This document shows positions 16,640 to 40,250 of a stretch of DNA of 64,000 bases, piece after piece. Source of the stretch: a virus. Its lineage: Duplodnaviria; Caudoviricetes. Made by a program: the position numbers and the translations under genes. Numbering within the stretch: position 1 is the first letter of the stretch; each line of letters starts with the position of its first letter. The stretch lies in IMG/VR virus record IMGVR_UViG_3300042139_000023; one strand, written 5' to 3'. Under the pieces are notes generated by a model. It ran no database searches and was not told the DNA's origin. It saw nothing but the letters and a program-made list of their open reading frames with translations.

Positions 16640-16852
16640 AGGCCAGAAGGCGCTGACGGATGCATGGTCCTAACCTGGGACCCAAATTCAAATTCAATTC
16701 CGCATTTGGTTTTCTACCCTGAGTGAATTTCGACAGAATTTCCCGCGAATTTTTCCGCAGGTTTTCTCGCACCCGCTCCGCTCGCACTCCCGCTCACATT
16801 CCCTTGCATATCCATGTGCATTCATTGTGCATATGTGTGTGCATTGACGTGA

Positions 16853-16907
16853 GATAGATAGCTAGTGAATAGACCCTAGATATCCCTGCATTAGCTAGCT
16901 ATCTATC
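16853..16907. repeat. Perfect 13-bp inverted repeat
   Basis: GATAGATAGCTAG (16853-16865) / CTAGCTATCTATC (16895-16907). Confidence 0.9.
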
Positions 16908-17195
16908 CCCCTGCTTTCCCTTGCTTGCATTGCTGCGCATTCCCCCTGCATTCCATCTGTTGCATTCCCTCCCACATTCCGAGTGCACGTGATGAGAGAC
17001 AGCAGATATCGAGACTCCGAATGCGTCGCTTGCTTTCCCTCGCTTTCCTTTTCCCTTGCCTCCCGCTTTCCTCTCACTGCATAGGTTCATGTGTATGTGT
17101 GTATTGGGTGTGACCAGTACAGACGAGAATGCGAAATAGCGATATCGAGATACCCGCGCATTCCCGTTCCGTGCGCTCCCGCATTCCCCCTGAAT

Positions 17196-17399
17196 TCCCG
17201 CGCGCTCCCGCTCCCGGTCACGTGCTCCCACCTGCACGCATACACACATGATCATGAGCACTGCGCATAGCGAGCGATCACCCGTTCACACGCTCCCGCA
17301 TGGCACCCGTACCCGAGTGCGCCGTACCCGCTCACGTGCTCTCACGACAGGCACCCGAGCACGCGCACCGTGCGCGCATCCCGCGCGCTCCCGCTCCCG
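17196..17399 (+). repeat. 21-bp direct repeat, 2 copies
   Basis: TCCCGCGCGCTCCCGCTCCCG at 17196-17216 and 17379-17399. Confidence 0.9.
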
Positions 17400-17925
17400 C
17401 GCGCACCGCTGCACGCGCGTGCGACGCGCGCACCCTGGCCACCCCTCCCGCTCACATGTGTACTCACGTGCTCATCTGTGCTGATCATTCCCCTCAGCTT
17501 CACATTCTTCCCACACCCTTCCCTTCCCTCTCAAATCAGACATACCTACACACATGTTCCTGATATCCGGGAGCGCGCTAGACGTGCTGCACTCCGGGAG
17601 CATTCCGAGTTTCCGCAGGTCAGCAGCATGATCCCTGCAAACTCCGACATTCGGGACAACGCTGTGACCTGCGGTTTCAACAGTTCGTTGTACCGGTTTC
17701 GAGCGTCAGAAAGCGGAGCGATCCTGACTAAATAAGTAACTAAGAGTGGTTGACCCTCACTTGCTTCTCACCCTCTGTATATGCATTGCAGGTCGCAGCG
17801 CTGACGTGCGCGTACGTGCATGATTCGGACATGTGGGAGTTATGAGCACACATGCCGCCGCCTTCCTCACTCTCGAAACCCTCCCCGCGCTGCCTGTCTC
17901 GCGTAGCTATGTCCGAGTTTGTACA

Positions 17926-17941
17926 TGTGACCTGCGTCACA
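17926..17941. promoter_or_regulatory. CRP-consensus box TGTGA-N6-TCACA (copy 1)
   Basis: TGTGACCTGCGTCACA. Confidence 0.6.
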
Positions 17942-18170
17942 CTTTTATCGATGCTTGCTACACCTACCGATTTGCTCGCTCGTTTGCTCACCGCAAATTC
18001 TTGACCCATCTGTCGTACATGTCCGTTTCGTGTCGTGAAGTCCGGTACGATCTCCATGCCTCTGACCTGCACAAACAGATTCGTTCGTCGCATCGTCGCA
18101 GGTCCAAGAGTTGCGAGAACCTTTTTCGAGAAAATCTTGAAACTCATCGTTTCCGCAGGTCAGAGCCCAA

Positions 18171-18186
18171 TGTGACCTGCGTCACA
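18171..18186. promoter_or_regulatory. CRP-consensus box TGTGA-N6-TCACA (copy 2)
   Basis: Identical 16-mer TGTGACCTGCGTCACA. Confidence 0.6.
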
Positions 18187-19348
18187 GGTTGTAGGTCCTG
18201 AACTCCGGTAGCGCTCTGACCTGCACGTTTCTTGATCACATGACACGCCGTCAGCAACCCCACACTTGCAATGGCAGCCATGTTTCTGCTTGTGTTTGGC
18301 CTGTCGCCACGACGCGGCGCCCGCTCCGGCGGGACGCGGCGCGGGGCGAGTGCAGGGGCCCGGTTCCAACCCGGGCCACACCCGCCCGGGTGTTCCTCCG
18401 CTTCACGTGGGGGGTGACCGGGGAGGGCTCACACGAACTCTGTGACGCATGCGGTTCGCCGTAGCGACGTCGGGAGGGGAAACGGGAGGCACGATCCCCG
18501 GGTGAGGCGGACGGGAGCGAAACGCGCTAGCCGTAATGGCGCGGGAAGCACTCGAATGCGGTTCCTTGTGATCCTCGGAGCCCTTTCGCACACGATCCCC
18601 GGTAACCCGGGAGTGCGGGAGCGGCGCAAACGGCAAGCCACGCGGTCCCCTAGGGGGCGCCGGAAAGCGTGGCCACTCGAACCGGTGGGAGGGGTCACCC
18701 TTTTGCCAGTCGGGAATACGGCGCACGGAGTACGTGACCACTTGCCGGAATGCCTTACAGCCGCAACCTACGCGGACAGGGAATCCGGGAATGTCACAGG
18801 AAACGTGTTAAAGCGTTAGTCCGGTTCCCGCGAGTTGCGGCGCACGCAAGTACGGCCCTCTAGTCCGGGAGGTCAACCACAAGCCACGTGGGGAAACCGG
18901 GGGAATGGTGGGGAAAGCGTGTCGAAATAGTCAGTCCGCAGCAAAACCCGTTTCACCACTGGTTCGAGCCAAACGCACTATGCGGGTACGGCATAGATGA
19001 TCACGCACTCTCCCGGGAGGGGTTCCGGGGGTGACGTGCGACGGTACGGCGGGATACCAGGGGTGTCGGAACCCTTGCCCGTGACGGACGGGAGCGCTTA
19101 GCGCTTCCGTCCCCCGGGGGATTCGGACGCGACACGTTGCGACGCGCCGGTTTCCACACGGAAATACGGGACGCGCTCTGATGTGGCGCCGTTTCCCCCG
19201 GGATGCTCCACACTCACCGTGCGGTGAGCACGAACGGACAACACGGTTTCGGTCCGGTAGGCAGGGAGGCTAGAACTCCCGTGACGCTACGACGGGGAAA
19301 CTCTGTCCGTTCTTCCCTCCGCACGGAGGTTCGGGAAGGATTCCGGCA

Positions 19349-19528
19349 ATGGTGATCAGGCTTGACAACGGCGGAACGGTGACGGTCTCGGAAAGCGGGA
19401 TCACGTACCGCCGGGGGCGCGAGATTCAGTGGCGCCCCCTCCCCGGGACGTACAGCGAATCGGCCGAATGGCTGGACACGTTGGCGAACGGGAATGCGGG
19501 AGTTCTGTTCACGTCGCGTAAGGCGTGA
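19349..19528 (+). CDS. Small hypothetical protein (59 aa, below the track cutoff)
   Basis: Hand translation MVIRLDNGGTVTVSESGITYRRG...; GGAAGGA upstream. Confidence 0.55.
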   Translation: MVIRLDNGGTVTVSESGITYRRGREIQWRPLPGTYSESAEWLDTLANGNAGVLFTSRKA

Positions 19529-19587
19529 ACTGTCGGCAGACGTCGCACACGAGAGATGCGACGCGGACAACGGAAAGCGGGAAGATC

Positions 19588-21339
19588 ATGAACGTTGCGG
19601 GCAAGGTGTTGGCGGTTTCGGGCGACGGTTTCGCTCGGATGTACGGGCAGGGTGAGCGGGGCGCGGGACACGCGGTGTTCATTCCGGCCGGTTGCCAGGG
19701 TGACCCGTTGGGCGGGAGCGGCGCCCGGATCACCCGGGCATGCGGGAGCACGCTCCCGACGGAAAAGGCGGCCGAGAAATTCCAGGGTGACAAGCGGTGC
19801 CCGAAGTGTGTCGAGTGGCTGGCCACGACGGACGGGATCGCTGCGCTCGAATCGGCCCGTGCGGAGCGTCACGCGTGGGAGTTCGGCGCGGACGACATGG
19901 CGGAACTGTTCAGCGTGGCGGAGGTGAACGGAACGGACACCCGGGAGGACTCCGCCACGGTGACCCCGGGCGAGATTGCCAAGGATGCGGCGGCGGCGGG
20001 TGACCCCGTGGGCAAGCGTGCGGCGGCCGTCAAGCGGGAGCGCAAGCGGCTTGCAGACCAGCGGGAAAAGCGGGAGGCCGCTAAGCGGGAGAACTCCGCC
20101 ACGGTGCCCCCGGCGGCGCCGGAGAGTGGCGCGGTCGGAATCACGGGACTGACGCACGCTGAGATGCGGGAGGCCACGGAGCGGTTTTACGCGAACGGTG
20201 GCAAGCCTTCGGCTGAGATCCTGGCACTTCCGGCGCCCGGAATGGTGAGCCTGGCAAGCGGGACGGTTTCCGGGAGTGCGGCCGAAATTCTGGTCTGCAC
20301 GTTCAAGGGTGAGGTTTCCACGGTCAACCCGGAGCGGACGCACGGGAAGTGCCCCGACTGCACCACGTACATTCCGCTTCTGCCCGGGGGCGCGGGAGGC
20401 AAGGAAACCGGCCCGAAGGTTTCCAAGATCAAGTGCGAAGGGACCGGCAAGGCTCCGGCGCCCGGGACGCGCGTGATGCGCGATGACCACACGGTGAGCG
20501 TGGCGGACGACTACGACGGCAAGCACTCCGGCAAGTGCCCGGAGTGCGCCCGGGTGATCGCTGTCAGCCGTGAGGGCGGCATGCGCAAGCACAACGGTTT
20601 GGAAGTGCGGGAGGACTCCGGCCCGGACGCGGACAAGATCGGCAAGCACAACGTGGGCGGGGTCGCGACTCCGGCCGGTAAGGGCCTGTCGTCCAAGTCG
20701 ATTGACACCGTGGAACACGGGAGCGTGCCCGGTGACCCTGCCTCCGCTGACAAGCGGCGCGCGGCGGAGATCGAAGAGCGGGGCGCGGACGCGCGGGAGT
20801 TCAAGGGCGGCGCGGACACGGGCGCCACGGTGCGCAAGGGTGCGCGGCTCGCACTGTCCCGGGGTCACGGTTCGGTGGACGGGAGCGCGACGACCGGGAG
20901 TCAGAACATGGCGCCCGTGCAGCCCAAGGGATGGGTGGGGGTGGCCGGTACCGGCTCCCTGCCCGCGATGGTCCGGCCCGGGATTGACCCGGAGGTGACC
21001 GGCCGTGAGTGCGTCGTCTGCGGGGAACTCCCGGAGATTGCGCACGCGGGCAAGTCGAAGGGTTGGCGGCGGCGCCACTCGTCGAAGGTGGGCGCGGTGC
21101 TGCGGGACCGTAAGGCGCAGCGGGAGGCCAAGCGCGCGGCGCAGATCGAAAGCGGGGAGATCGTTCCCGCCCCGGTCAAGCGGGAGGCTCGTAAGGCGGC
21201 GTCGGTCGGATCGTTCAGTGAGGGCAACGTGAACGGGACCGTGACGCACGCGCCCCGCCCGGAGTTCGCCCCGAAGGGGACGCGCAAGCCTGCCCCGAAC
21301 GGTCAGAAGCATACCCGCCGGAGCGGTCGCGCAGAGTAG
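19588..21339 (+). CDS. Large multi-zinc-ribbon protein
   Basis: RBS GGAAAGCGGGAAG; CPKC, CPDC, CPEC and CVVC motifs; basic C-terminus. Confidence 0.75.
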   Translation: MNVAGKVLAVSGDGFARMYGQGERGAGHAVFIPAGCQGDPLGGSGARITRACGSTLPTEKAAEKFQGDKRCPKCVEWLATTDGIAALESARAERHAWEFGADDMAELFSVAEVNGTDTREDSATVTPGEIAKDAAAAGDPVGKRAAAVKRERKRLADQREKREAAKRENSATVPPAAPESGAVGITGLTHAEMREATERFYANGGKPSAEILALPAPGMVSLASGTVSGSAAEILVCTFKGEVSTVNPERTHGKCPDCTTYIPLLPGGAGGKETGPKVSKIKCEGTGKAPAPGTRVMRDDHTVSVADDYDGKHSGKCPECARVIAVSREGGMRKHNGLEVREDSGPDADKIGKHNVGGVATPAGKGLSSKSIDTVEHGSVPGDPASADKRRAAEIEERGADAREFKGGADTGATVRKGARLALSRGHGSVDGSATTGSQNMAPVQPKGWVGVAGTGSLPAMVRPGIDPEVTGRECVVCGELPEIAHAGKSKGWRRRHSSKVGAVLRDRKAQREAKRAAQIESGEIVPAPVKREARKAASVGSFSEGNVNGTVTHAPRPEFAPKGTRKPAPNGQKHTRRSGRAE

Positions 21340-21418
21340 TCCGCAACGGTCCGGAAGTCGAAGAGCGAAACGGGCCCCGGGAGATCCCCGGGGCCCATCG
21401 GAAAGGGGAACACGGGAC

Positions 21419-22087
21419 ATGAGCACGATCACGGTTGCGCAGGGTATCGAGGACGCGCGGGAGCGCGTGACGCCGTTCTTCGAGGGACTGCGGGAGGACA
21501 TGACGGCCCACTTCTGGGAGACGTTCGGCGCGGCGGCGGCGGCCTACCGGGGCGCACGGTCGGAGGGTCCGGCGGCGGACCGGTTCGCGGGAGTGGTCGG
21601 CGAACTGATCCGGGACGCAAAGGGGACCGCGAGTGACCCCGTGCTGCGCCGTGGCGCCCCGCTCCCGGCCGAGTACGGCGCCCCCGCGCGGGAGGTCCGG
21701 GAGATCCCTCCCATGCCCCCACGTGCCCCGTGGGCGACCATGCCGACCGACGGGAGCGGGAGGCTCACCCTGCCGGAACGGATCCTGTACAGCGTGATCG
21801 GTGGCGCGTGCGCGGCGGTCCTGCTGATCCTCGGATTCCTGGTCTCGGGTGTCGGGAGTTCCCCGGACGCTCCGGCCACGGACACGCGCAACGCGGGGCA
21901 GGTGGTCACGGACGCCGACCTGATCACGCAGGGTGGCTACTGGTCATGGGAGGTCGCGGAGTCGTGCGGGATGCGCGTTCCGGCCGAGTGTGACAAGACA
22001 CTCCGGGAGGTCAACGCGGCGGCGGAGCGCTACGGCGTGCGGGTGTGGGAGGACGGAACGATCTCCCCGCTGGGACGTCAGTACTGA
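21419..22087 (+). CDS. Membrane-anchored hypothetical protein
   Basis: Single TM segment ILYSVIGGACAAVLLILGFLV. Confidence 0.75.
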   Translation: MSTITVAQGIEDARERVTPFFEGLREDMTAHFWETFGAAAAAYRGARSEGPAADRFAGVVGELIRDAKGTASDPVLRRGAPLPAEYGAPAREVREIPPMPPRAPWATMPTDGSGRLTLPERILYSVIGGACAAVLLILGFLVSGVGSSPDAPATDTRNAGQVVTDADLITQGGYWSWEVAESCGMRVPAECDKTLREVNAAAERYGVRVWEDGTISPLGRQY

Positions 22088-22185
22088 TCACGGCCGTGCG
22101 GTCCGGTCGGACTCCGCCCCGGCGGGGTTCCGGCCGAATCGTCCGGGAGTGAGGGACGAGACATCGGAACGGAGAGGATTTGATC

Positions 22186-22584
22186 ATGGGTGCTGTCACG
22201 CTGGCCAAGCTGGGGGACGACGTCCGGGAGGACTTCCCGGGGGTCGGGATGAACTCCGGCGCGGGAGCGGTTCAGTTCATCGGCGACATGCCCGCGCGTA
22301 AGGTCGACGGCCCGCTGTTGCTGGTCGCGGGCATGCGCGTGAACCTGCCGGAGTCGGTCAAGGTGCCCGGCCCCCGGCGCGTCAAGGCGGTTGCCGTGGC
22401 GATCGAGCGCGACGGATTCCGGGACGCGGACGAGACCGTGCCCAGCTACCGGGGCGTGGTGATCACCGAGGATGGGGACGAGTACCCGACCGGCCCGCGC
22501 GGTGACATGGAATCCGTGCGCCTGGCGTGGCTGCGCCTGGCCGTGGAGTCGGGGACGTTCCGCCGCATCGCCCGGATGAGCTAA
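22186..22584 (+). CDS. Hypothetical protein
   Basis: RBS GGAGAGG. Confidence 0.75.
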   Translation: MGAVTLAKLGDDVREDFPGVGMNSGAGAVQFIGDMPARKVDGPLLLVAGMRVNLPESVKVPGPRRVKAVAVAIERDGFRDADETVPSYRGVVITEDGDEYPTGPRGDMESVRLAWLRLAVESGTFRRIARMS

Positions 22585-22596
22585 CATCCGGGACGT

Positions 22597-22607
22597 GGCC
22601 TAGGTCA
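22597..22607. promoter_or_regulatory. GGCCTAGGTCA operator-like palindrome (copy 2)
   Basis: Intergenic. Confidence 0.6.
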
Positions 22608-22638
22608 GACAGGAACATCGGAAGGGAGAAACGGGATC

Positions 22639-23022
22639 ATGCAGGAATCCATGACGCGCGGTGAGTGGTGGGACGAGTCGGCCCCGTACGGGCCGAACGG
22701 GTACACGTACGGGCGCGGTGAGCGGGTGGCGAACGCTCAGGTTGCCCGGGAGATCACGTTCGACATGCAGCCGGGTGACCCGAACTGTGTCGCGCGGGGT
22801 GTCGCCGAGATGACCGACGGCCGCGTGTACATGTTCACGGTCGTGCGGGAGGAGTTCGCCCGGCACTGCAAGGCGGACGGCCGCACGCGGCGCCGGTTCG
22901 CGGCCCTGTCGCGTCAGCCGTTCCGGGAGGCCGCTTCCGAACTGATGGCATGGGAGGTCGCCGGGCACCGCATCCGCCCGGCGGACGTGCCGGAGTACGT
23001 GAGGCAGATCAACGCGCTCTGA
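22639..23022 (+). CDS. Hypothetical protein
   Basis: RBS GAAGGGAGA. Confidence 0.8.
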   Translation: MQESMTRGEWWDESAPYGPNGYTYGRGERVANAQVAREITFDMQPGDPNCVARGVAEMTDGRVYMFTVVREEFARHCKADGRTRRRFAALSRQPFREAASELMAWEVAGHRIRPADVPEYVRQINAL

Positions 23023-23029
23023 CGTCGGG

Positions 23030-23083
23030 GAGACGCCCTAGGCGAACCGGTCCGGGAACGGACCGGGGCGCCGGGAGTGCCGC
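23030..23083 (+). ncRNA. Intergenic structured element, family 2 (copy a)
   Basis: GAGACGCCCTA-[stem-loop]-GGGAGTGCCGC. Confidence 0.5.
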
Positions 23084-23146
23084 CCGGCACTGCGGGCCCG
23101 GTCACATCGGATCGGGCCCATTGGTTCGGAAAGAGAGAAGATCAAC

Positions 23147-23554
23147 ATGCGTGCAGCATTCGCGGGAATCCTCGCCGGTCTCGTCGCCCTGTTCTCGCTG
23201 AGCGGGAGTGCGGAAGCGGCCCCCGCCCGCCCGTCGGTGAAGGTGGTCAAGTCGGTCTGCGAGACCGGCCACCGGGGCATGCCGGAGTACGACCGTAAGT
23301 GCCTGAAGACCGGGACGATCCTGGACGGGGTCAACCTGTGGTTCCGGTACATCGAGGGCGGCGCGGTGAGCAAGGCCGACCGCAAGGCGTTCTGCAAGGA
23401 CGCGACCAGCACGGGCCACACCCGCGCCGGGATCATCGACGGCCTGTTCGATGTCGCGTACGACAACTACCGGAACCACAAGCTGATGCTCTCGGTGGCC
23501 GGGACCGTCGGCGTGATGGACTGCCAGCAGCTCGGGGTCAAGATCAAGAAGTAG
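23147..23554 (+). CDS. Secreted protein with Sec signal peptide
   Basis: MRAAFAGILAGLVALFSLSGSAEA|A; four Cys. Confidence 0.75.
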   Translation: MRAAFAGILAGLVALFSLSGSAEAAPARPSVKVVKSVCETGHRGMPEYDRKCLKTGTILDGVNLWFRYIEGGAVSKADRKAFCKDATSTGHTRAGIIDGLFDVAYDNYRNHKLMLSVAGTVGVMDCQQLGVKIKK

Positions 23555-23574
23555 TCCGGCCGGACCGGCGGACG

Positions 23575-23604
23575 GGAGCGCGCGGGAGGGGGCCCGCGCG
23601 TTCC
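23575..23604 (+). ncRNA. GGAG...UUCC hairpin, family 1 (copy A)
   Basis: GGAGCGCGCGGG-loop-CCCGCGCGTTCC. Confidence 0.6.
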
Positions 23605-23645
23605 AGCCTGCTTGTCCAGTGGGAACCGAGGAGAGGGAGAAGATC

Positions 23646-23963
23646 ATGGCAAAACTTTCGGCGGCCGGGCGACTCGTGCTGTTCCTGGTCGACAGTCCGC
23701 ACGCGCACGTCAGCTACTCGCTGGGGGGCGGGTTCCGTCCGTCCGTCATCGCGTCCATGGAGCGGGGCCACGGGACGAAATCGAACCCGCGTGCCGACAC
23801 GGTTCTGAAGCTGATCGACGTCGGCGTACTGGCGGGGGCGGAGTTCGCCGATCTGACGCTGACCGACCGGGGCCGGACGATCCTCGCCGAACAGGTGGCG
23901 GCCGGGTGGGAGCTGGTCACCGGGACCGGTCACAAGCCGTACGTGCAGCGCAAGGACGCGTGA
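23646..23963 (+). CDS. Possible winged-helix-like protein
   Basis: TVLKLIDVGVL...LTLTDRGR pattern. Confidence 0.5.
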   Translation: MAKLSAAGRLVLFLVDSPHAHVSYSLGGGFRPSVIASMERGHGTKSNPRADTVLKLIDVGVLAGAEFADLTLTDRGRTILAEQVAAGWELVTGTGHKPYVQRKDA

Positions 23964-24049
23964 CCGGATGACGGGAGCGCCCGGGGTATCGGCCCCGGGC
24001 GCTGACGCCACCTTGTCACGGACCGAACCGAGGAAAGGGAGAAACGGGA

Positions 24050-24586: not shown

Positions 24587-24612
24587 CGAACGGGTCACGA
24601 TGTAGGCGGACG

Positions 24613-24639
24613 GGAGCGCCCGGATCCTCCGGGCGTTCC
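24613..24639 (+). ncRNA. GGAG...UUCC hairpin, family 1 (copy B)
   Basis: GGAGCGCCCGGA-tcc-TCCGGGCGTTCC. Confidence 0.6.
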
Positions 24640-24661
24640 AGCCGGTCTATGATCGGGCAAC

Positions 24662-24671
24662 GGCCTAGGCC
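24662..24671. promoter_or_regulatory. GGCCTAGGCC palindrome (copy 3)
   Basis: Intergenic, downstream of TATGAT. Confidence 0.6.
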
Positions 24672-25507: not shown

Positions 25508-25521
25508 CGCGGTCGCGTTCG

Positions 25522-25549
25522 GGAGTGCCGGGAGGGGGCCCGGCATTCC
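25522..25549 (+). ncRNA. GGAG...UUCC hairpin, family 1 (copy D)
   Basis: GGAGTGCCGGG / CCCGGCATTCC. Confidence 0.6.
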
Positions 25550-25582
25550 AGTGCACAACCGACGGAAGGGAGAAACGGCAGC

Positions 25583-31397: not shown

Positions 31398-31406
31398 GGT
31401 GACGGG

Positions 31407-32852: not shown

Positions 32853-32869
32853 CGGAAAGAGGGAAGAGC

Positions 32870-33148: not shown

Positions 33149-33179
33149 CACCCGGGTGGCGGCCCGTGCACGGTGCCGC

Positions 33180-33195
33180 TAGTCTGGCCTAGGCC
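33180..33195 (+). promoter_or_regulatory. -10-like TAGTCT abutting the GGCCTAGGCC palindrome (copy 4)
   Basis: TAGTCT 33180-33185, palindrome 33186-33195. Confidence 0.6.
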
Positions 33196-33282
33196 GACGG
33201 GTTCGGGAGCGGCCGGTCCTGCGGGATCGGCCGCTGACGTGCCGTGTCGGACGGCGGAGTTGAATCGGAGAGGGAGAAGAGC

Positions 33283-33633
33283 ATGGGGACGTACGTCACC
33301 GACGGTGAGAACGAGATCGGCGTTGCCCTGACGGACTCGTGGGCGGCCGTGTGGACCGTCGACACGCAGTACATCGAGGTCATCCGGCGCGACTTCTGGG
33401 ACGAGCACAGCGAGGCGATCAAGGCGGCGGCCAAGCGGGGCCGCGACTTCACCGACGAGGACGGCCACAACGGCACCGTCGCGGTGATCAGCACGGACGG
33501 CGACCTGGACGACGAGGGCTTCCCGAAGGAGTTCGACGACGCCTCGGAGTACGTCGCCGACGAGCTGTCCTCGTGGACCAGGTCGGACGGTGGCGCGTAC
33601 GAGCGGGCCACCGTTCAGGGCTACAGCTACTGA
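33283..33633 (+). CDS. Highly acidic small protein (DNA-mimic candidate)
   Basis: About 27 D/E versus 9 K/R in 116 aa (hand count). Confidence 0.75.
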   Translation: MGTYVTDGENEIGVALTDSWAAVWTVDTQYIEVIRRDFWDEHSEAIKAAAKRGRDFTDEDGHNGTVAVISTDGDLDDEGFPKEFDDASEYVADELSSWTRSDGGAYERATVQGYSY

Positions 33634-33646
33634 CGGGAGCGGCGGG

Positions 33647-34099
33647 ATGCACGGGGAGCTGATCAGGTACACGTGGGCACCGAACCCCGGGATGGCCTGG
33701 GGTCTGGTCCATCTGTCGCAGGGCAGGGACGGCGACATGATCGGCGCCTTCGTGTACGAGGACCGCGATGCGGCCCTGAAGGGCGACAAGCGGGCCGGAT
33801 CCACGCTGTACCGGGTGGTGCGGCAGATCCGGCCCGCCGACCAGAGCACCGGAACCCCGGACGCCGGGGCCTACGCCTTCGTGTGCAGCTCAGCCACGGA
33901 GTACACCATCTGGACGAAGCCCACGGTGAACGACGTGGGCGGGAGCGAGTACGACGGGGTGTGGTCCTTCCGGGACGCACCGGCCGCCGTGGAACGCACC
34001 GGATGGGCGAACAAGGAGAACGCACGGTACGAGGGACCGGATAACCCCCGGTTCGCAACGTTCCTGCTCACGTGGGACGTGACGGAAGAGGAGAAGTGA
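33647..34099 (+). CDS. Hypothetical protein
   Basis: Co-oriented ORF; start uncertain. Confidence 0.7.
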   Translation: MHGELIRYTWAPNPGMAWGLVHLSQGRDGDMIGAFVYEDRDAALKGDKRAGSTLYRVVRQIRPADQSTGTPDAGAYAFVCSSATEYTIWTKPTVNDVGGSEYDGVWSFRDAPAAVERTGWANKENARYEGPDNPRFATFLLTWDVTEEEK

Positions 34100-34100
34100 C

Positions 34101-34661
34101 GTGGCTCAGACACTGCGCGGGATTCAGATGTTCGACCGGGGCGACCGGGTCGAGATCGGGGAGGGCGAACTGGCCACAGTCGAGCACGACATGGGCGGCG
34201 AGGTCGTCCATGTGCACCCGGACGGGAGCCGGAGCCGGTACCCGCACGACGCCATGCCGGTCGCCCGGGAGGGCGTGAAGCTGACCCGGCAGACCGAGAA
34301 CGGCGAAGAGGTTCAGGTCGAGATCTACTCGAACGGCTCCACGCACACGCTGTACGAGTGCTGCGGATACGACGAGTGCCGGGAGCTGATCCTGGTCAAG
34401 GGTCTCGGGATCGACCGGGCGGAGGCGTTCGCCGGGGACCGGTTCGTGGTCGAGGTCGAGGGTGAGCCGGTACGGATCACGGTCAAGCCGCTCGACGATC
34501 CGTCCTCGTGCATCTGGTGCTACGGGTGCGGCGACTTCCTCGCGCACGGCGAGGGCTGCGAGTGCGAAGACCGGGGCCACAACCCCGAGGCCGACCGGGA
34601 GCCGATGCGCCCGCTGGTCGTGGAGAAGGACGGGCGACTGGAACTGACGCCCTTCAACTGA
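34101..34661 (+). CDS. Hypothetical protein with SH3-like N-terminus and Cys cluster
   Basis: FDRGDRVEI...; CIWCYGC...CEC. Confidence 0.7.
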   Translation: MAQTLRGIQMFDRGDRVEIGEGELATVEHDMGGEVVHVHPDGSRSRYPHDAMPVAREGVKLTRQTENGEEVQVEIYSNGSTHTLYECCGYDECRELILVKGLGIDRAEAFAGDRFVVEVEGEPVRITVKPLDDPSSCIWCYGCGDFLAHGEGCECEDRGHNPEADREPMRPLVVEKDGRLELTPFN

Positions 34662-34664
34662 GCG

Positions 34665-34713
34665 GAGACGCCCTAGGGTTCCCGGCCGCGCGCCGGGGGC
34701 CCGGGAGTGTCGC
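34665..34713 (+). ncRNA. Intergenic structured element, family 2 (copy b)
   Basis: GAGACGCCCTA-GGGTTCCCGGC/GCCGGGGGCCC-GGGAGTGTCGC. Confidence 0.55.
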
Positions 34714-34749
34714 TGATCGGGCGATGCCGGAACGGAGAAGGAGAACGGG

Positions 34750-35340
34750 ATGACCGAGATGGACGTGCTGGAGACGGCGGGCCGCTACCGGGTGCGCCTG
34801 GTGGTTCAGCAGGACTCGCAGGACTGCAACCCCCGGACCGAACAGGACTGCAACCTGACGAACGTGATCACCCCGAAGGGTCAGCGGTACATCGACGTCG
34901 ACAAGGACGGCGGGCCGTTGGCGGAGGGGTGGGAGCGGATCGAGGACCGGTACGTGGACGCGGTCCCCGTCTTCACCCGGTGGGCCAAGATCTTCCACGG
35001 TGCCACGGTCGTCGAGGACCGGCCGCACGACGGTGCCTGGTCGATCTGGTACGTGATGCCGGAGAAGCTGGCCGAGACCACGTGGACCGCCGAGAAGGTC
35101 ATCGAGTCGGAGCAGACCGAGTACCGGCGATGGGCCGAGGGTGAGGTGTACGGCCACATCGTCGAGAAGGACGTGACCCGCATCCCCCGGGACGCCGAGG
35201 ATCGAGACGACCCGGAGCTGGACGACGAGACGCGCGAGTGGGAAGAGGTCGACTCGTGCTGGGGCTACATCGGCCGGGAGTACGCCGAGGAGGCGGCCCG
35301 CGAGGGGTTCGCCCCGTACGCCGAGGAGGCCGGGAAGTGA
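34750..35340 (+). CDS. Acidic conserved-type phage protein (W.EGEVYG...DSCWGY.G)
   Basis: Recognisable motif pattern; RBS GAGAAGGAG. Confidence 0.8.
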   Translation: MTEMDVLETAGRYRVRLVVQQDSQDCNPRTEQDCNLTNVITPKGQRYIDVDKDGGPLAEGWERIEDRYVDAVPVFTRWAKIFHGATVVEDRPHDGAWSIWYVMPEKLAETTWTAEKVIESEQTEYRRWAEGEVYGHIVEKDVTRIPRDAEDRDDPELDDETREWEEVDSCWGYIGREYAEEAAREGFAPYAEEAGK

Positions 35341-35645
35341 AGCGGGAGACACGAGAGATCGCCCCGATGACGGTGACCCGGATCGTCCGGGGCAGGCCGC
35401 CGGGGCACATCGGACCGTACTGGTTCGGCTTCGACATCAAGGTGACCGGCCCGGCGGACGGAGCGTACGTGAGCGCCCGCGCCCGCGCCCTGGCCATGAC
35501 CGACGCGCAAGCCCTGTGCAACGAGGTGAACGCGCCGGGCCTGGTGCTCCAGTTCGAGCGGGCCGGTAACTGGGACGACCCGAGACAGTACGAGTGCACG
35601 ATCAGCTTCGGTACGAGCCTTTCCGTGGAGGAGGACCCGCTGTGA
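35337..35645 (+). CDS. Hypothetical protein
   Basis: GTGA coupling. Confidence 0.7.
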   Translation: MKRETREIAPMTVTRIVRGRPPGHIGPYWFGFDIKVTGPADGAYVSARARALAMTDAQALCNEVNAPGLVLQFERAGNWDDPRQYECTISFGTSLSVEEDPL

Positions 35646-35968
35646 GCGGTGACAACGTGTGGACCCTGCCCGACGGGACGGAGCTGGTCTACCAGGACGG
35701 CGATCACGTCACGATCGACATCGACCCCGGTTCACCGTCGGCCCTGAGCCTGCCGTTCCTGAGCGGCTACGTGCGGGGGTACGACGCCGTGATCGAGGAC
35801 GGCGGCCCGGCGAAGGTGGCGTACACGCTGTACAACGTCGGGAACAACCCGCTGGTCGGCGTGCGGGAGGACCGGCTGAAGAAGACGGTCAGCCGGTTCG
35901 GCATCGGCCACGGCCGGGGTGCGCACGGGGACGGCAAGGCGTGCCACCTGTGCGGTGCGAATCTCTGA
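35642..35968 (+). CDS. Hypothetical protein
   Basis: GTGA coupling, GGAGGAGG RBS. Confidence 0.75.
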   Translation: MSGDNVWTLPDGTELVYQDGDHVTIDIDPGSPSALSLPFLSGYVRGYDAVIEDGGPAKVAYTLYNVGNNPLVGVREDRLKKTVSRFGIGHGRGAHGDGKACHLCGANL

Positions 35969-35972
35969 GCGG

Positions 35973-36020
35973 GAGGCGCCCTAGGGTGACCGGCTGCGGC
36001 CGGTCACCCGGGAGTGCCGC
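35973..36020 (+). ncRNA. Intergenic structured element, family 2 (copy c)
   Basis: GAGGCGCCCTA-GGGTGACCGGC-tgcg-GCCGGTCACCC-GGGAGTGCCGC. Confidence 0.55.
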
Positions 36021-36047
36021 TCGATCGAGCGGACGGAGAGGGAGAAG

Positions 36048-36395
36048 ATGCTGACGAGTGAGGGTCTGGCCAAGGGACGCGCCTGGGTGGCGACGCCGGA
36101 GGAGTACGAGGAGGCGGCGCAGCCGCACGTCCGGCAGCGCAACGAGCGCCGCCTGCGGGGCTTCAACTTCGAGATCATGATCGGTGGCCTATGCCGGGAC
36201 GGGGACTTCTCGTACCCCTACCCGGGCTACTACGGCACGACGGCCCCGGTCGTGGGCCTGCGCCGGGACCAGGCCGAGCACCTGACGGCCGAGCTGCTGA
36301 AGAAGCTGGCCCCTGGCGGCGAACTGCCGACCGACGCGGCCGAGCTGTTGGACTTCGTGTCCACTGTGCTCCGCAACGGCTCCGCCCCTGCCTGA
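36048..36395 (+). CDS. Hypothetical protein
   Basis: RBS GAGAGGGAGAAG. Confidence 0.8.
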   Translation: MLTSEGLAKGRAWVATPEEYEEAAQPHVRQRNERRLRGFNFEIMIGGLCRDGDFSYPYPGYYGTTAPVVGLRRDQAEHLTAELLKKLAPGGELPTDAAELLDFVSTVLRNGSAPA

Positions 36396-36398
36396 CGG

Positions 36399-36446
36399 GA
36401 GGCGCCCCAGGGTTTCCGGCTGCGACCGGAGGCCCGAGAGCGCCGC
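36399..36446 (+). ncRNA. Intergenic structured element, family 2 (copy d)
   Basis: GAGGCGCCCCA-GGGTTTCCGG..CCGGAGGCCC-GAGAGCGCCGC. Confidence 0.55.
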
Positions 36447-36620
36447 CCACGGGTGGCGCAAGTCGGAAGGGAGGTGAGTCGGATGAGCAACGACGACGAG
36501 TGGGAGAAGGCGGGCCGGGAGGCCGAGGAGATCCTGCGGAGGCTGAAGGGCTGACCCGCAGGCAGAAGCGCAGCACACCACGTGAGCACAGAGAACTGCA
36601 TCCGCGAGAAGGAGAAGAAC

Positions 36621-36749
36621 GTGACGCAGGAGACGCCCCAGACCCCGCCGGACATGATCAACGTCCCCGTCCCGGCCGACACGCCGCCGCCGGAGGCCAT
36701 CTCGGTCACCCCGGAGAACGCGCAGCAGATGGACGCCGACAAGAAGTAG
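36621..36749 (+). CDS. 42-aa Pro-rich peptide
   Basis: RBS GAAGGAGAAG; MTQETPQTPPDMINVPVPADTPPPEAISVTPENAQQMDADKK. Confidence 0.55.
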   Translation: MTQETPQTPPDMINVPVPADTPPPEAISVTPENAQQMDADKK

Positions 36750-36810
36750 CGGGCCGACGGCGCCGCTCGGGGCGGCCGGGAGACCGGCCGCCCTCCCGGA
36801 AGGGGGAGAC

Positions 36811-37179
36811 ATGCACGAACAGGATGTGTGGCGGGTGCGGTTCACCCGGGAGCACGGGGAGCTGTGGTCGCAGACCCTGGAAGGGCTGATGACCTTCCGG
36901 TACGGGTCCAGCGGGACGTGGGCGGCGCATGCGGCCCTGATCCACTGGACCCGGGCGTGCGGGGTGCCGGGCAGTGCCGACAACTACCCGATGCGGTACC
37001 TGGCCGAAGCCATCCGCATGAAGGACGGTGAGGAGATCGTTGCCGGGAAGGCGACCGCCGTCCGGGACTCCCTGAACGGGAAGTTCCTCAACGAGAACCA
37101 GGTCGACATTCTCCAGTTCACGCCGGAGGGGACGCTGATCCACACCCGGGAGAGCTGGACCGTAGCCGAAAGGCACTGA
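36811..37179 (+). CDS. Hypothetical protein
   Basis: RBS GAAGGGGGAG. Confidence 0.8.
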   Translation: MHEQDVWRVRFTREHGELWSQTLEGLMTFRYGSSGTWAAHAALIHWTRACGVPGSADNYPMRYLAEAIRMKDGEEIVAGKATAVRDSLNGKFLNENQVDILQFTPEGTLIHTRESWTVAERH

Positions 37180-37195
37180 AGGAAGGGAGTGGGGC

Positions 37196-37420
37196 ATGGC
37201 TCTCACGCTCACGAAGGAACCGACGCCGGAGATCACCGGCCCGATCACGATCAGCGCCGAGTGGAACCACTCGTGCACGTCGCAGTGCCCGAACCCGTGC
37301 CCGGCGTCGTCCCGGTTGACGCAGCCGGGCGTCACGGCCCGCATCCCGCAGCAGCCGGGGCCGCAGTCGCCCCCGCCGAAGACGCCGAAGGTCCCGCAGC
37401 AGCCGGGCCCCCGGGACTGA
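37196..37420 (+). CDS. Pro/Gln-rich small protein with PQQPGP x2
   Basis: RBS GAAGGAAGGGAG. Confidence 0.6.
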   Translation: MALTLTKEPTPEITGPITISAEWNHSCTSQCPNPCPASSRLTQPGVTARIPQQPGPQSPPPKTPKVPQQPGPRD

Positions 37421-37447
37421 GACCCGAACGAGGAGAGGGAGAAGATC

Positions 37448-37891
37448 ATGGGCGAGTGGACGATGCACGGCCAGGTGTGGGCCGACGACGGCGACGTGGG
37501 CGGGGACACGCAGATCGGGAAGGCGGCAAGCGTCCGGTTCGTGAACCCGGACTGCCCCGGCGCCCGGGTCACGGTGTACGCCTACGCCTCCGCTCCCGAG
37601 CGCTCGATCGAGGCCAAGGTCGGTTCGATCGAGGTGTTCATGGGCTACGACGCCGACCTGGGCAACCTCGGGATCGAGTCGCAGGTCTGGTTCGAGATCG
37701 ACGACGACGCCGAGGGCGACGCCGACGAGTGGGACCCGACCTGGTCGGAGATCAGGTACGAGTCGCTGGACTCGTACATCGCCCCCGGGCCGGACGAGAA
37801 GCGGGTGGCCGTGGCCGAGGCGGCGGCGCTCGCCTGGGTCCGGGCGTACGACCCCAAGAAATTCATCAACTGGGACGGCAAGCGGTTCTGA
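37448..37891 (+). CDS. Acidic hypothetical protein
   Basis: RBS GAGAGGGAGAAG; D/E-rich. Confidence 0.8.
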   Translation: MGEWTMHGQVWADDGDVGGDTQIGKAASVRFVNPDCPGARVTVYAYASAPERSIEAKVGSIEVFMGYDADLGNLGIESQVWFEIDDDAEGDADEWDPTWSEIRYESLDSYIAPGPDEKRVAVAEAAALAWVRAYDPKKFINWDGKRF

Positions 37892-37966
37892 GCCGGTGCG
37901 TTCGGGGCGGCGGGAGCTGTGGGTTCCCGCCGCCCAGTGCACATCGGACGGAAGGAGAGGGAGAGC

Positions 37967-38938
37967 GTGAAGAGGTTCGAGGACGCCGAGAAGGTCACCC
38001 CGCAGCAGCTCAAGGGCATGACCCCGACACAGGTGGACGAGCTGTTCGCCGTCGCCTGGGATCACCGGTACGAGCTGGTGGAAGAGGTGTACGCCGCCTG
38101 GAACGAGGTGCACTACGCCGTCGGTGACCGCCGGGTCAGCACGCAGACGTGGCGCCTGGGTCATCAGGAGGTGCAGGACAAGGCCGCCGGGACCGAGCGG
38201 GGCCGCAAGGCGCTCGACCGGGTGAACCGGGCGAAGGGTTCGGTCGCCGAGCTGGACGGCACCGTGCTGGCCAAGCTGGAAGCCGAGTTCGACAGCCGGG
38301 GCGGATGGTCCCGGGCCTACCTGGTCACCGATGGCCACGTGCACAGCTCGATGCACTGCTCGTCGTGCAACCGGGGCGAGTTCCCGACCCGCTTCTTCTG
38401 GATGATCGACTACTCCGGGAAGAGCATGGCGGAGATCGTCGAGGCCGCTGGGGAACGGGCCTGCACCATCTGCTACCCGGATGCGCCGGTCGCCCGCAAG
38501 GACAAGGGTGAGACGGTGAACGTACCGAAGTCGGTGATGCTGACTTCCGAGGAGATCCAACGCGACGAGGCCAGGGATGCGGAGGCCAAGCGCCGGGCGG
38601 AGAAGAAGGCCAAAGCCGCGCTGAACGCCATCACGCAGCCCGACGGCACTCCCCTGCGGGACGAGGTGGACCGGGACGGCAGGCAGAAGGGCTCGGTCGT
38701 GAAGACCGTGCGCACGGCCCGGACCGAGCTGAAGCGGCAGTGCTGGTACGCGTACGCCTGGGGCGACGACGACGGCGCTCACGAGCGGAACATCCAGCAC
38801 CTGGGCAGGGCCGTGGCCTGGAAGGAGAACGGCCTGGCGATCGGGGACGAGCCGACCGCCGAACAGATCGAAGCGGTGATCAAGCCGCTGCGGGACAAGG
38901 CCGTGAAGGAAGTCGACAAGGCCCGAGCAGAGGGCTGA
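37967..38938 (+). CDS. Conserved-type actinophage protein with Zn-binding HVHSSMHCSSC...CTICYP
   Basis: GGWSRAYLV..GHVHSS..C..C...CxxCYP motif family; function unknown. Confidence 0.8.
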   Translation: MKRFEDAEKVTPQQLKGMTPTQVDELFAVAWDHRYELVEEVYAAWNEVHYAVGDRRVSTQTWRLGHQEVQDKAAGTERGRKALDRVNRAKGSVAELDGTVLAKLEAEFDSRGGWSRAYLVTDGHVHSSMHCSSCNRGEFPTRFFWMIDYSGKSMAEIVEAAGERACTICYPDAPVARKDKGETVNVPKSVMLTSEEIQRDEARDAEAKRRAEKKAKAALNAITQPDGTPLRDEVDRDGRQKGSVVKTVRTARTELKRQCWYAYAWGDDDGAHERNIQHLGRAVAWKENGLAIGDEPTAEQIEAVIKPLRDKAVKEVDKARAEG

Positions 38939-38952
38939 AGGGGAGCGAGAAG

Positions 38953-39489
38953 ATGAACGAGACCACCATCCGCATCATCCACTGGATCTGGGGCGAGCCG
39001 AAGCTGGCCGACTTCCTGCGCGGCATCGCCGAGGGGGAGAAGATCCCGCCGCATGACGAGGCGTTCGAGTACGGGGACGACCAGCTCGCCTGCTGGATCT
39101 CCGACCTCGTCTTCCCGGAGGACCGCAGCCGGGGGATCAAGGCGTGGATCGACCTGGGCGGCAGCGACGAGCGGGCCGACGCCCTGTACGAGGCGCTGAC
39201 CGAGGGCCGCAAGACGCCCGCCGGGCGCCTGAAGTGGCTCGACGAGATGGACATCGGCCTGATCCGGGACGCCCTGCTGGGGCACAAGGGAGGATCGGAC
39301 ATCTACGTCCACTCCCTGGTCAAGCCGTACCACCCGAACAACACCTACCGGGTGCACGACTTCGGGACGGTCTACGAGCGGGGATGGACGTCGGCCTCCG
39401 GCGCCTGGGGGCTGGCCGAGAAGGACCGGCAGGTCTGCCCCAACCCGACGGTCTCACCGTGCGGGTGCACGGTGGTGCAGCGTGGCTGA
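38953..39489 (+). CDS. Hypothetical protein
   Basis: RBS AAGGGGAG. Confidence 0.75.
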   Translation: MNETTIRIIHWIWGEPKLADFLRGIAEGEKIPPHDEAFEYGDDQLACWISDLVFPEDRSRGIKAWIDLGGSDERADALYEALTEGRKTPAGRLKWLDEMDIGLIRDALLGHKGGSDIYVHSLVKPYHPNNTYRVHDFGTVYERGWTSASGAWGLAEKDRQVCPNPTVSPCGCTVVQRG

Positions 39490-39826
39490 ACTGGCCTGCA
39501 CCTGCGGTCCCGGCGATTCGGTCGCCGGGACCCGGCGGGAGATCGTCGAGCAGCGGCTGGCCGGACTCTTCAATCTCACGGTTCCCGAGGTTCATGCTCT
39601 GCTGGATCTGCTGGACCGCGCGAACGAGGCTGCACTGGACATCCCGGATGATGAACGGGACCCGGAGGGCGGGGAGACCGAACGCCAGATGGCCCGGGAA
39701 TCCGGCCGCACCGAGGGCTGGATCAAGAACTTCCTGAGCGCCTGGGAGTTCACGTCCACCGCACTGGACCAGGAACTGCACGAGAAGCACGGCCCGTGGG
39801 GCGGGCTCTTCGGCAAACAGTCCTGA
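39482..39826 (+). CDS. Hypothetical protein
   Basis: Overlap-coupled. Confidence 0.75.
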   Translation: MAELACTCGPGDSVAGTRREIVEQRLAGLFNLTVPEVHALLDLLDRANEAALDIPDDERDPEGGETERQMARESGRTEGWIKNFLSAWEFTSTALDQELHEKHGPWGGLFGKQS

Positions 39827-39842
39827 ACAACTGGAACTTCAC

Positions 39843-39853
39843 GGCCTAGGTCA
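39843..39853. promoter_or_regulatory. GGCCTAGGTCA palindrome (copy 5)
   Basis: Intergenic, followed by TAGTAT. Confidence 0.6.
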
Positions 39854-39902
39854 GTAGTATTCGAGGGCCCCGGGAGAACCGGGGCCCGGGAGGAGAGACG
39901 GG

Positions 39903-40250
39903 ATGCAGCAGATGGACGAGTACCGGCGTACGGCGGAGTTCGTGGACGTGGTGGCCGGTGAGCCGGGCCAGGTGCACACGGTGTACCGCTTCCCGAACAC
40001 GGAGCACGGTCACGGCCGGGCGGTCGAGTACCGCAACGCCTACAACGAGTCCCTGCGCGAGGCGATGGAGATCCCGAAGGCCGATCTGGAACTGGAGCGT
40101 CCCGACTGGGGCCAGCGCCGGGAGGAGTACGACCGGGCGGAGAAGGTCGAGCTGTACCGGTACAACCAGGCGGGCCTGTCGTACGTGCACCCGCCCAAGC
40201 TGATCGGGCCGAACGACCCGATGCCGACCGACTACCCGCACGAGTTCTGA
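39903..40250 (+). CDS. Hypothetical protein
   Basis: RBS GAGGAGAG. Confidence 0.8.
   Translation: MQQMDEYRRTAEFVDVVAGEPGQVHTVYRFPNTEHGHGRAVEYRNAYNESLREAMEIPKADLELERPDWGQRREEYDRAEKVELYRYNQAGLSYVHPPKLIGPNDPMPTDYPHEF

Follow-up and report, generated by a model that had tools for sequence, protein, structure and literature searches.

In the phage DNA of IMG/VR virus record IMGVR_UViG_3300042139_000023, of which a stretch of 64,000 nucleotides was analyzed (here called the window), the hexamer CGGGAG and its reverse complement CTCCCG form a genome-wide, conserved, and bipolar architecture built on this one word, which computed counts confirm. The genome consists of two arms of opposite motif polarity, in which most copies point inward from the physical genome ends and the orientation bias is ~10-fold in each arm. 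Polar words such as Chi and KOPS (FtsK-orienting polar sequences) tell tracking enzymes their direction on a chromosome, and CGGGAG, conserved across phages that share little DNA similarity in the region, is an unusually clean candidate for such a word. It is a candidate actinobacterial Chi-like signal or, failing that, a candidate code for a phage DNA motor.

Polarized distribution of CGGGAG

On the plus strand of the window, CTCCCG occurs nine times (at 16787, 17060, 17176, 17205, 17211, 17293, 17388, 17394, and 17445), after which CGGGAG takes over, with 116 copies versus 10 of CTCCCG between 17568 and 40000. The density of CGGGAG on this strand is 7.9 per kb at 18.4 to 25.5 kb, 5.1 at 25.5 to 30 kb, 3.5 at 30 to 40 kb, 1.7 at 40 to 50 kb, and 1.07 at 50 to 64 kb. 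At 1 to 16 kb it is 0.19 per kb, while the minus-strand copies remain at ~0.7 per kb over positions 1 to 16672. These exact counts bear out the initial annotation of the window, which had reported from hand counts about nine copies of CTCCCG at 16787 to 17450, CGGGAG from 17568 onward, a decay in density with distance, and a scarcity of the reverse complement in the enriched zone.

The window comes from a relative of the BM-cluster Streptomyces phages, with a DNA identity of 89 to 91% to Frankenweenie; Kela, JustBecause, and Satis are more distant relatives, and only ~9% of this region matches Satis in megablast. The BM-cluster phages are siphoviruses with prolate heads and genomes of 184 to 200 kb that have defined ends and a direct terminal repeat (DTR) of ~1.04 kb (PMC6687918, PMC10652959). 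The window is oriented as the reverse complement of the BM records and spans the junction between the two genome ends: blastn places base 1 of Frankenweenie at window position 17,712 and its last base at 16,673. By homology to these termini, positions 16,673 to 17,712 represent one collapsed DTR copy of 1,040 bp (1,038 bp in Frankenweenie), the boundaries of which are the physical genome ends.

Gene calling based upon coding potential finds no gene between 16.33 and 19.35 kb, followed by ~115 small genes from 19.35 to ~68.5 kb (beyond the window), all on the plus strand. This early arm (arm A) corresponds to the “hypothetical protein” right arm of the relatives and is presumed, by analogy, to be transcribed early, packaged last, and injected first; the rest of the genome, of roughly 135 kb, is referred to as region B. 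The assembly of the window's own genome (G000) is 168 kb long, versus 184 to 200 kb in the relatives, and is possibly incomplete. Because it is short and differs from the window at 40 positions, we base statements about whole genomes chiefly on Satis and Kela, for which the records are complete.

Across the whole 168-kb assembly, the enrichment is confined to the early-arm zone, and the densest array adjoins the genome end that carries the early genes. A gradient matching that of the window is seen in Frankenweenie, Kela, and Satis, and also in a more distant phage; the initial annotation had proposed a comparison with related phages. This last phage (phage X) is a 125-kb metagenomic phage, Logan contig SRR22742194_31184, with 63.5% GC and a different gene order, of which 79 kb (record positions 3,690 to 82,943) was analyzed. 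Its small-gene arm has 13, 17, and 8 plus-strand copies of CGGGAG per 5 kb versus 3, 3, and 2; beyond that arm there are 17 copies versus 30.9 expected, and the other strand has 22 versus 22.5. Thus, the phenomenon extends beyond the named BM cluster.

The point at which the motif changes strand had been considered as a possible genome end. It lies at 17,451 to 17,567, which is inside the DTR, so that all nine CTCCCG copies and the first two CGGGAG copies sit within the repeat. The accompanying idea that both ends carry the motif in the same orientation holds in that most copies point inward from both physical ends, although the flip itself is not a terminus. From the late end, there are two outward copies, then the nine-copy inward array of the DTR, and then region B at ~0.7 copies per kb and a ratio of roughly 8:1. 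From the early end, there are nine outward copies, two inward copies at 895 and 922 bp, eight in a 620-bp leader, and then the gradient of arm A.

In Satis, the cumulative curve of forward minus reverse copies is lowest inside the DTR, 767 bp from the end. For Kela, two outlying reverse copies shift the formal minimum to 1,847 bp; the reverse cluster stops at 737 bp, and the first forward copy is at 905 bp. In both genomes, the curve peaks at 40 to 45 kb, near the end of the early arm, and then falls steadily; the genes of Satis change direction at ~47 to 48 kb. The totals on the two strands are nearly equal (156 forward versus 143 reverse in Satis; 168 versus 136 in Kela).

Enrichment beyond coding constraint and the recognized word

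The initial annotation had called for a control that preserves the protein sequence. Synonymous codons were shuffled within each gene, which keeps both the protein sequence and the codon usage of that gene, and the enrichment survives: CGGGAG occurs 58 times at 19.3 to 30 kb versus 23.6 ± 3.1 expected (z = 11). The excess decays along the arm, from 40 versus 14.9 ± 2.8 at 19.3 to 25.6 kb, to 17 versus 9.0 ± 1.9 at 25.6 to 30 kb, to 21 versus 15.1 ± 2.4 at 30 to 40 kb, and beyond 40 kb the counts match expectation. Each of the three reading frames shows an excess (xxC GGG AGx, for instance, has 12 copies versus 1.4 at 19.3 to 25.6 kb), and intergenic DNA is as dense in the motif as coding DNA. 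An artifact of codon or dipeptide usage was rejected on the strength of the large excess that remains after shuffling; codon usage does shift in arm A, where CGG makes up 55% of the arginine codons versus 34% elsewhere and G exceeds C at third positions, and this shift accounts for only part of the pattern.

Several approaches were used to delimit the word. CGGGA is the top pentamer in the early arm (180 versus 102 expected; z = 13.6), and under a maximal-order Markov model the excess begins at the tetramer GGGA, with 216 copies versus 140 expected and only 41 of TCCC. GGGA is preceded by C in 66% of cases and followed by G in 47%. When three genomes are pooled, any single-base variant at positions 2 to 5 abolishes the effect; CGGGAC acts like CGGGAG, and CGGGAT, CGGGAA, and NGGGAG do so partly, with CGGGAG having the most extreme ratios both ways among the variants. 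GGAG without a preceding G is not polar in the BM phages. A strict hexamer was thus set aside in favor of CGGGA(G/C), in which GGGA is strict, C is preferred before it, and G or C follows. So sharp a recognition profile resembles a protein recognition site rather than compositional drift.

Among all 4096 hexamers, CGGGAG ranks first in Satis for polar depletion in region B and second for enrichment in arm A, and it ranks first for both in Kela. In region B, the strand corresponding to the early sense strand carries 12 copies versus 65.1 expected in Satis and 15 versus 61.0 in Kela; the other strand carries 100 versus 80.5 and 83 versus 70.3, respectively. The corresponding counts in arm A are 105 versus 58 and 118 versus 68.

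Polarity follows the DNA strand

In the rest of the genome, beyond the early arm, a 4- to 5-fold purge of CGGGAG affects the same DNA strand irrespective of gene direction. In region B, plus-strand CGGGA is depleted both in plus-strand genes (55 versus 125 expected; z = -7.5) and in minus-strand genes, where it is antisense (35 versus 70; z = -6.5), and the opposite orientation is at expectation in both gene sets; every 10-kb bin gives the same sign of depletion. The complete genome of Satis replicates this result, with observed/expected ratios of 2.1, 1.7, 1.7, and 1.35 over the first 40 kb, ~1 at 40 to 50 kb, and 0 to 0.8 in every bin from 50 to 186 kb, for both gene orientations. Since the purge tracks the DNA strand in genes of both orientations, the signal is at the level of DNA and not of mRNA, in keeping with the initial proposal of a polar DNA motif and against the alternative offered with it, a Shine-Dalgarno-like role in mRNA.

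The test also separates the two kinds of word, as can be seen from another Streptomyces phage, Mischief19 (MK686071), in which the top “polar” word, GTTCA, follows the sense strand in both gene orientations. Over that whole genome, GTTCA (and GGGTTC) is ~2-fold enriched on the sense strand, which makes it a transcript-level word.

Individual sites turn over. Over a homologous 33 kb, the motif totals in four phages are 283, 277, 296, and 292, and site conservation is modestly above that of same-phase control pentamers (158 versus 133, 95 versus 80, and 46 versus 38). A model of fixed functional positions was mostly rejected on these grounds; stable totals combined with site turnover indicate selection mainly on density and orientation. 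The spacing of copies is slightly more even than random (median, 78 bp), and tandem or dimeric sites were rejected, short-range clustering being absent.

A GC skew at 4-fold-degenerate sites persists when the motif positions are masked, and it is independent of the genes. In region B, the plus strand is C rich by 0.025 to 0.036 in three genomes, which matches the sign of the motif; in arm A, the plus strand is G rich, at +0.08 to +0.09 versus a sense-linked baseline of -0.06 to -0.09. This masked skew fits replication running inward from the repeats.

Features around the terminal repeat

The elements on either side of the polarity switch are as follows (window coordinates).

1 to 16672, no strand assigned: end of the late/replication part of the genome, with terminase, portal, ThyX, and methyltransferase (names from the Frankenweenie annotation).
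16673 to 17712, no strand assigned: DTR, one collapsed copy (blastn to both Frankenweenie ends).
16787 to 17450, minus strand: array of nine CGGGAG copies (CTCCCG on the plus strand) in a pyrimidine-rich tract with many YTCCC variants (counts).
17451 to 17567, no strand assigned: polarity switch, AT richer and free of the motif, ~0.8 to 0.9 kb from the outer DTR boundary (sequence).
17568 to 17600, plus strand: two CGGGAG copies (17568 and 17595) inside the DTR, 895 and 922 bp from its outer boundary (counts).
17713 to 18400, plus strand: motif-free noncoding stretch with TTGAC-type hexamers and GACCTGC/GCAGGTC inverted repeats, presumed to be an early promoter/operator region (sequence).
18471 to 19094, plus strand: noncoding leader array, with eight CGGGAG copies and many GGGAA/GGGAG variants in ~620 bp, the densest stretch (counts).
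19349 to 64000, plus strand: early arm, with the decaying CGGGAG gradient in coding and intergenic DNA (counts, shuffles).

The minus-strand array of the DTR has the polarity of the late/replication part of the genome, and Satis, Kela, and Frankenweenie have equivalent arrays of 3 to 10 copies at a distance of ~0.5 to 0.8 kb from the end. Inward copies also recur at about 900 bp (at 902 and 910 in Satis and at 905 in Kela). No Rfam match, tRNA, or consensus sigma-70 promoter was found at 16.3 to 19.6 kb, and terminator-like matches in that interval are no commoner than in shuffled sequence.

Other observations in and around these features concern regulation and variation. Pairs of GACCTGC/GCAGGTC inverted repeats occur at 17600 to 18230 (for example, 18060 to 18076 with 18149 to 18165); lying between the DTR and the leader, they look like operator sites among early promoters. 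Intergenic GC-rich hairpins at 23573 to 23610, 24611 to 24645, and 25520 to 25560 open with a single or double copy of CGGGAG and close with TTCCAG; they are terminator-like elements common to the early genes. Many early genes (19300 to 52000) share GAAGGGAGAAACGGGA-N-CATG at their starts, in which a GGGAG ribosome site is joined by a CGGGA immediately ahead of the start codon. Of the 40 positions that differ between G000 and the window, 24 are packed into 19,468 to 19,563, at the end of the first small open reading frame, a local hypervariable patch between two near-identical isolates. The ThyX-like thymidylate synthase (13628 to 14410, plus strand) shares 67 to 73% identity with the ThyX encoded on the chromosomes of Streptomyces, Actinomadura, and related actinomycetes, which suggests that the phage acquired it from a host.

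A possible Chi-like, end-oriented signal as the best explanation

Tentatively, we regard CGGGAG as a Chi-like, end-oriented signal that promotes recombination between terminal repeats. The reader would be a helicase-nuclease that enters from the end and recognizes 5'-CTCCCG-3' on the strand whose 3' end lies at the nearby terminus; it could be the host AdnAB or a phage set made up of a Cas4-like exonuclease and helicases. An enzyme entering from the late end would encounter the nine-copy array within the DTR. One entering from the early end would pass the DTR copies, silent in this direction, and then meet the two active copies at the inner DTR edge, beyond which the 1-kb leader and the early arm would supply a dense array of copies as back-up. 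Recognition would turn degradation into production of a 3' tail ending inside or just past the DTR, and this tail could invade the DTR of another genome copy, giving concatemers and priming replication rightward through arm A and leftward through region B. The early end, if it is the first to enter, would be exposed before any phage protein is made, which would account for the dense back-up array there.

The Chi-like explanation accounts for the flip inside the DTR, since each type of end would meet active copies within the repeat, and the fork directions that it proposes are those suggested by the masked GC skew. It also has precedent, because single-orientation clusters of Chi at phage termini are documented (PMC12315714). 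Chi sites in the active orientation outnumber those in the other by 20 to 3 in the lambdoid phage LLS and by 32 to 0 in Pseudomonas phage MD8; in both phages, they gather at the end packaged last, to which RecBCD has access (PMC12315714). In P1, Chi clusters lie in or near the terminal repeats, where recombination dependent on RecBCD and RecA starts the cycle (PMC12315714). The window resembles these cases in its strand bias (116 versus 10 copies, as counted above), its gradient starting from the DTR, and its arrays within the DTR, next to what is presumably the last-packaged end, and its polarity follows the strand and the ends rather than gene direction, as would be expected of a signal read relative to a double-strand end. 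Of the initial suggestion that the motif is Chi-like, these parts stand: it is polar, DNA level, end linked, and preceded by other phages. The unskewed host chromosome and the purge, which Chi does not predict, do not fit it.

These and other points weigh against the Chi-like explanation. In their hosts, the known Chi words occur in excess and with a strand skew, and the initial annotation had proposed that the polarity of the motif be checked in host chromosomes. In the 340 kb around dnaA of Streptomyces cavernae, a single species, other than the isolation host, examined near its origin, CGGGAG occurs at ~0.55 per kb per strand with no excess over synonymous shuffles, and its leading-to-lagging ratio of 223:171 (1.3:1) is little beyond that predicted from GC skew. 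CGGGAG is thus not a strongly skewed host architecture word in the manner of Chi or KOPS in Escherichia coli, at least near the origin of that species. Furthermore, a Chi model fails to predict the 4- to 5-fold purge of the silent orientation (12 versus 65 in Satis), since silent copies should be free. The known Chi words are G rich, and with the geometry of RecBCD/AddAB the recognized strand here would be the pyrimidine-rich CTCCCG. A density of 8 to 15 per kb over tens of kilobases is far above any known Chi arrangement, we know of no Chi for AdnAB, and entry of the early arm first is assumed.

The bolder version of this explanation, in which CGGGAG/CTCCCG is the missing actinobacterial equivalent of Chi, read in one orientation by AdnAB or a phage counterpart, with the genome architecture built around it, is doubtful. 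Under it, the dense inward arrays at the ends would steer resection to recombination or priming, and outward copies would be actively removed.

Alternative explanations

An unlikely alternative is that the word guides or brakes the packaging motor. Terminase would load on the co-directional array of the DTR and run through the cleared late region, and head-on copies at rising density in the last quarter would make the motor slower or steadier while the head is filling and would help it to make an exact terminal cut. Such a one-directional, genome-wide process would fit selection on one orientation only, enriched in the last-packaged quarter and purged elsewhere, with a density that climbs toward the DTR and an array inside the DTR, where terminase must act. 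It is also compatible with the even spacing and the selection on density, and needs no skew in the host. In lambda, termination at cos needs the polar cosQ, and slower translocation helps. However, there is no known packaging motor that reads a short word across tens of kilobases, and the direction of packaging is itself presumed. In the late part, the opposite orientation shows a slight enrichment (100 versus 80.5 and 83 versus 70.3), and this, together with a GC skew that is independent of the motif, suggests two arms rather than one direction.

We consider it improbable that the word guides a translocase, in the way of KOPS, SRS (SpoIIIE recognition sequences), or TRS (TraB recognition sequences), such that a phage ATPase of the FtsK/TraB family or the host FtsK would orient pumping relative to the junction between genome units, as when concatemers are handled or DNA passes through the cross-walls of hyphae. 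The logic is that of KOPS, with one orientation enriched, the other purged, independence from genes, and two switch points. An FtsK/TraB-like translocase is encoded by every BM phage examined. In the window's genome it is a 433-amino-acid protein (P0001) encoded outside the window on the minus strand (G000:C1:145866-147164), and this distance of the gene from the early end counts against such a role. Its AlphaFold model (pLDDT [predicted local distance difference test], 92.8) matches FtsK motor structures at an E value of ~1e-13 and ends in a C-terminal three-helix winged helix, and Pfam detects FtsK_SpoIIIE and, weakly, an IclR-type helix-turn-helix. Identity to the Kela protein is 46% overall, and 79% in the winged helix (~50% elsewhere), which makes it the best-conserved part, and throughout the cluster this domain has changed far less than the motor; the 21 synonymous differences in its 76 codons indicate purifying selection rather than recent exchange. 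Distant homologues in Streptomyces genomes combine FtsK_SpoIIIE with winged helix-turn-helix domains of the MarR/IclR type, an architecture that resembles that of conjugative TraB. Conjugative TraB proteins read 8-bp direct repeats through the C terminus (PMC4447253).

As the reader of CGGGAG, the translocase was judged unlikely because covariation failed: phage X has a different winged helix and yet the same gradient and purge. A word that is unchanged when the reading head differs argues against the translocase as the determinant of specificity, and its retention in phage X despite different proteins suggests a reader that is host encoded or more deeply conserved. Phage X is one of three metagenomic relatives with a clearly different winged helix; over 21 kb per variant phage, the counts were 10 versus 16 expected, with 7 versus 24.7 in BM controls, and IMG/VR contained no relative of the variant winged-helix protein. 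A general link between TraB-like genes and polar words likewise found no support, as Mischief19 and a further Streptomyces phage, TP1604 (NC_028818; 57 kb, 69% GC), carry TraB-like genes with no DNA-level polar word: the top word of Mischief19 is sense linked, and the top words of TP1604 have no clear DNA-level polarity. The host FtsK is disfavored by the unpolarized host chromosome, and for either motor the density is highest at the point from which the arrows run apart, contrary to what KOPS show near dif.

Evasion of an orientation-dependent host restriction enzyme (Type III or Type ISP-like) acting at CGGGAG has a similarly low probability. Uniform arms would avoid the cleavable inverted pairs locally, and the dense early-arm array would serve as an uncleavable decoy that soaks up the enzyme. 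CGGGAG has its one adenine on a single strand, as Type III sites do, and the single-orientation bias of T7 toward EcoP15I is known as an anti-Type III strategy. Restriction pressure is heavy: the coding sequence of Satis has zero copies of CCGCGG, GCCGGC, CTCGAG, CAGCTG, CTGCAG, and GAGCTC, and two other Streptomyces phages show strong avoidance of words that contain GGAG. However, two mutually inverted arms do not serve evasion of an orientation-dependent enzyme, since they create ~150 × 100 inverted pairs per molecule and convergent pairs at every concatemer junction, and evasion predicts no enrichment, whereas the early arm has ~2-fold more copies than the shuffles. A conventional enzyme cutting at CGGGAG would have cleared both strands, given that the BM phages drop palindromic sites entirely. 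The word avoided in TP1604 is GGAG and not CGGGAG, and GGAG lacking the preceding G is the form found above to be nonpolar in the BM phages. The absence of CGGGAG from TP1604 was accordingly discarded as a sign of a restriction target, because that phage is without any GGAG.

Site avoidance was also noted in its own right. The six palindromes of Satis would be expected 60 to 187 times each in its coding sequence, a case of classical restriction-site avoidance, and the window's genome has a symmetric depletion of CCGCG/CGCGG, GGAC/GTCC, and G runs. TP1604 has zero GGAG/CTCC anywhere versus 438 expected in its coding sequence, and the called genes of Mischief19 have zero CGGA/TCCG versus 600 expected. 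Each of these two phages thus avoids an asymmetric tetramer completely, including the Shine-Dalgarno core.

An equally improbable explanation is that the word marks replication arms for the phage replisome, as a priming or fork signal, or is a by-product of strand-asymmetric, context-dependent mutation. The two opposite arms, which switch within the DTR and again at the distal limit of the early arm, the masked GC skew of the same sign as the motif, and the primase/helicase and Pol I encoded by the phage are all consistent with it. Against it, a sharp six-base profile that survives the control for codon usage in each gene does not resemble mutational bias, the two arms differ greatly in length (~45 kb versus 140 kb), and the steep gradient is present in one arm only. 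A primer templated on the word would also start with a pyrimidine, which is unusual.

Highly improbable is a role in early transcripts, in which GGGAG would act in the manner of a Shine-Dalgarno sequence in ribosome recruitment or pausing, or would mark mRNA for a RegB-like endoribonuclease (T4 RegB cuts GGAG in early mRNAs): all copies in the early arm lie on the sense strand, the highest density is reached in the untranslated leader, and early ribosome sites often have GAAGGGAGAAACGGGA ahead of ATG, with GGGAG in 25 of 73 regions upstream of early genes, but this model is largely refuted by the gene-orientation test, in which it is the antisense copy that is purged from minus-strand genes and the sense copy that is neutral. 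Of 133 copies, no more than 5 coincide with a ribosome-binding position, and the DTR array, which sits on the opposite strand, has no gene that would transcribe it. Where sense-linked words do exist, as with GTTCA in Mischief19, the method picks them up. What probability remains falls to something else.

Comparison with known systems

Like the Chi clusters of LLS, MD8, and P1, the BM word is short, asymmetric, nearly confined to one orientation, and located near the (presumed) last-packaged end and the terminal repeats, thinning with distance; the role proposed for those clusters, conversion of an end-entering helicase-nuclease into a starter of recombination or replication, is the one proposed here. 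It differs from phage Chi in being a hexamer at 8 to 15 per kb instead of an octamer at ~0.5 per kb, in lacking a matching over-representation in the host chromosome, in the opposite relation of its G-rich strand to the nearby end, and in the purge of its silent orientation over ~135 kb. To our knowledge, the Streptomyces host has no RecBCD and no known Chi.

With KOPS, SRS, and the TraB repeats, the word shares a G-rich and polar sequence, the enrichment of one orientation and depletion of the other regardless of genes, and a genome divided into two arms at switch points, and the BM phages encode a motor of the FtsK/TraB fold with a winged-helix domain as the candidate reader. It is unlike them in having six bases rather than eight and in being far denser. 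The motor and its winged helix are conserved among the BM phages, but phage X combines a different winged helix with an unchanged word, and in place of convergence on a dif-like site with rising density, the G-rich arrows diverge at the DTR, where they are densest, and converge at the far end of the early arm, where the density is lowest.

The loss of EcoP15I sites in one orientation from T7 is similar in that an asymmetric six-base word with adenine on a single strand is nearly lost in one orientation over a large stretch. The BM genomes differ from it in having opposite arms, one of them strongly enriched rather than tolerated; a bias toward one orientation genome-wide with no enrichment is not what the totals (156 versus 143 in Satis) and the ~2-fold enrichment of arm A give. 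Nor does the word behave as an mRNA signal that tracks the sense strand and sits at ribosome sites, given the antisense purge and the few copies at such positions. Lambda cosQ and pac arrays are also orientation-dependent elements by terminal cut sites, with a repeat array in the terminal region, but they are single sites or small local arrays, unlike the 45-kb gradient and genome-wide purge of the BM phages.

The pattern thus differs from known polar words in length, density, active purge, host, and the absence of host skew. If the word is Chi-like, it would offer a handle on actinobacterial recombination, on the survival of large linear phage genomes at entry, and on concatemer formation; should a motor for packaging or translocation turn out to read it, this would be the first sequence code of genome scale for a phage motor of that kind.

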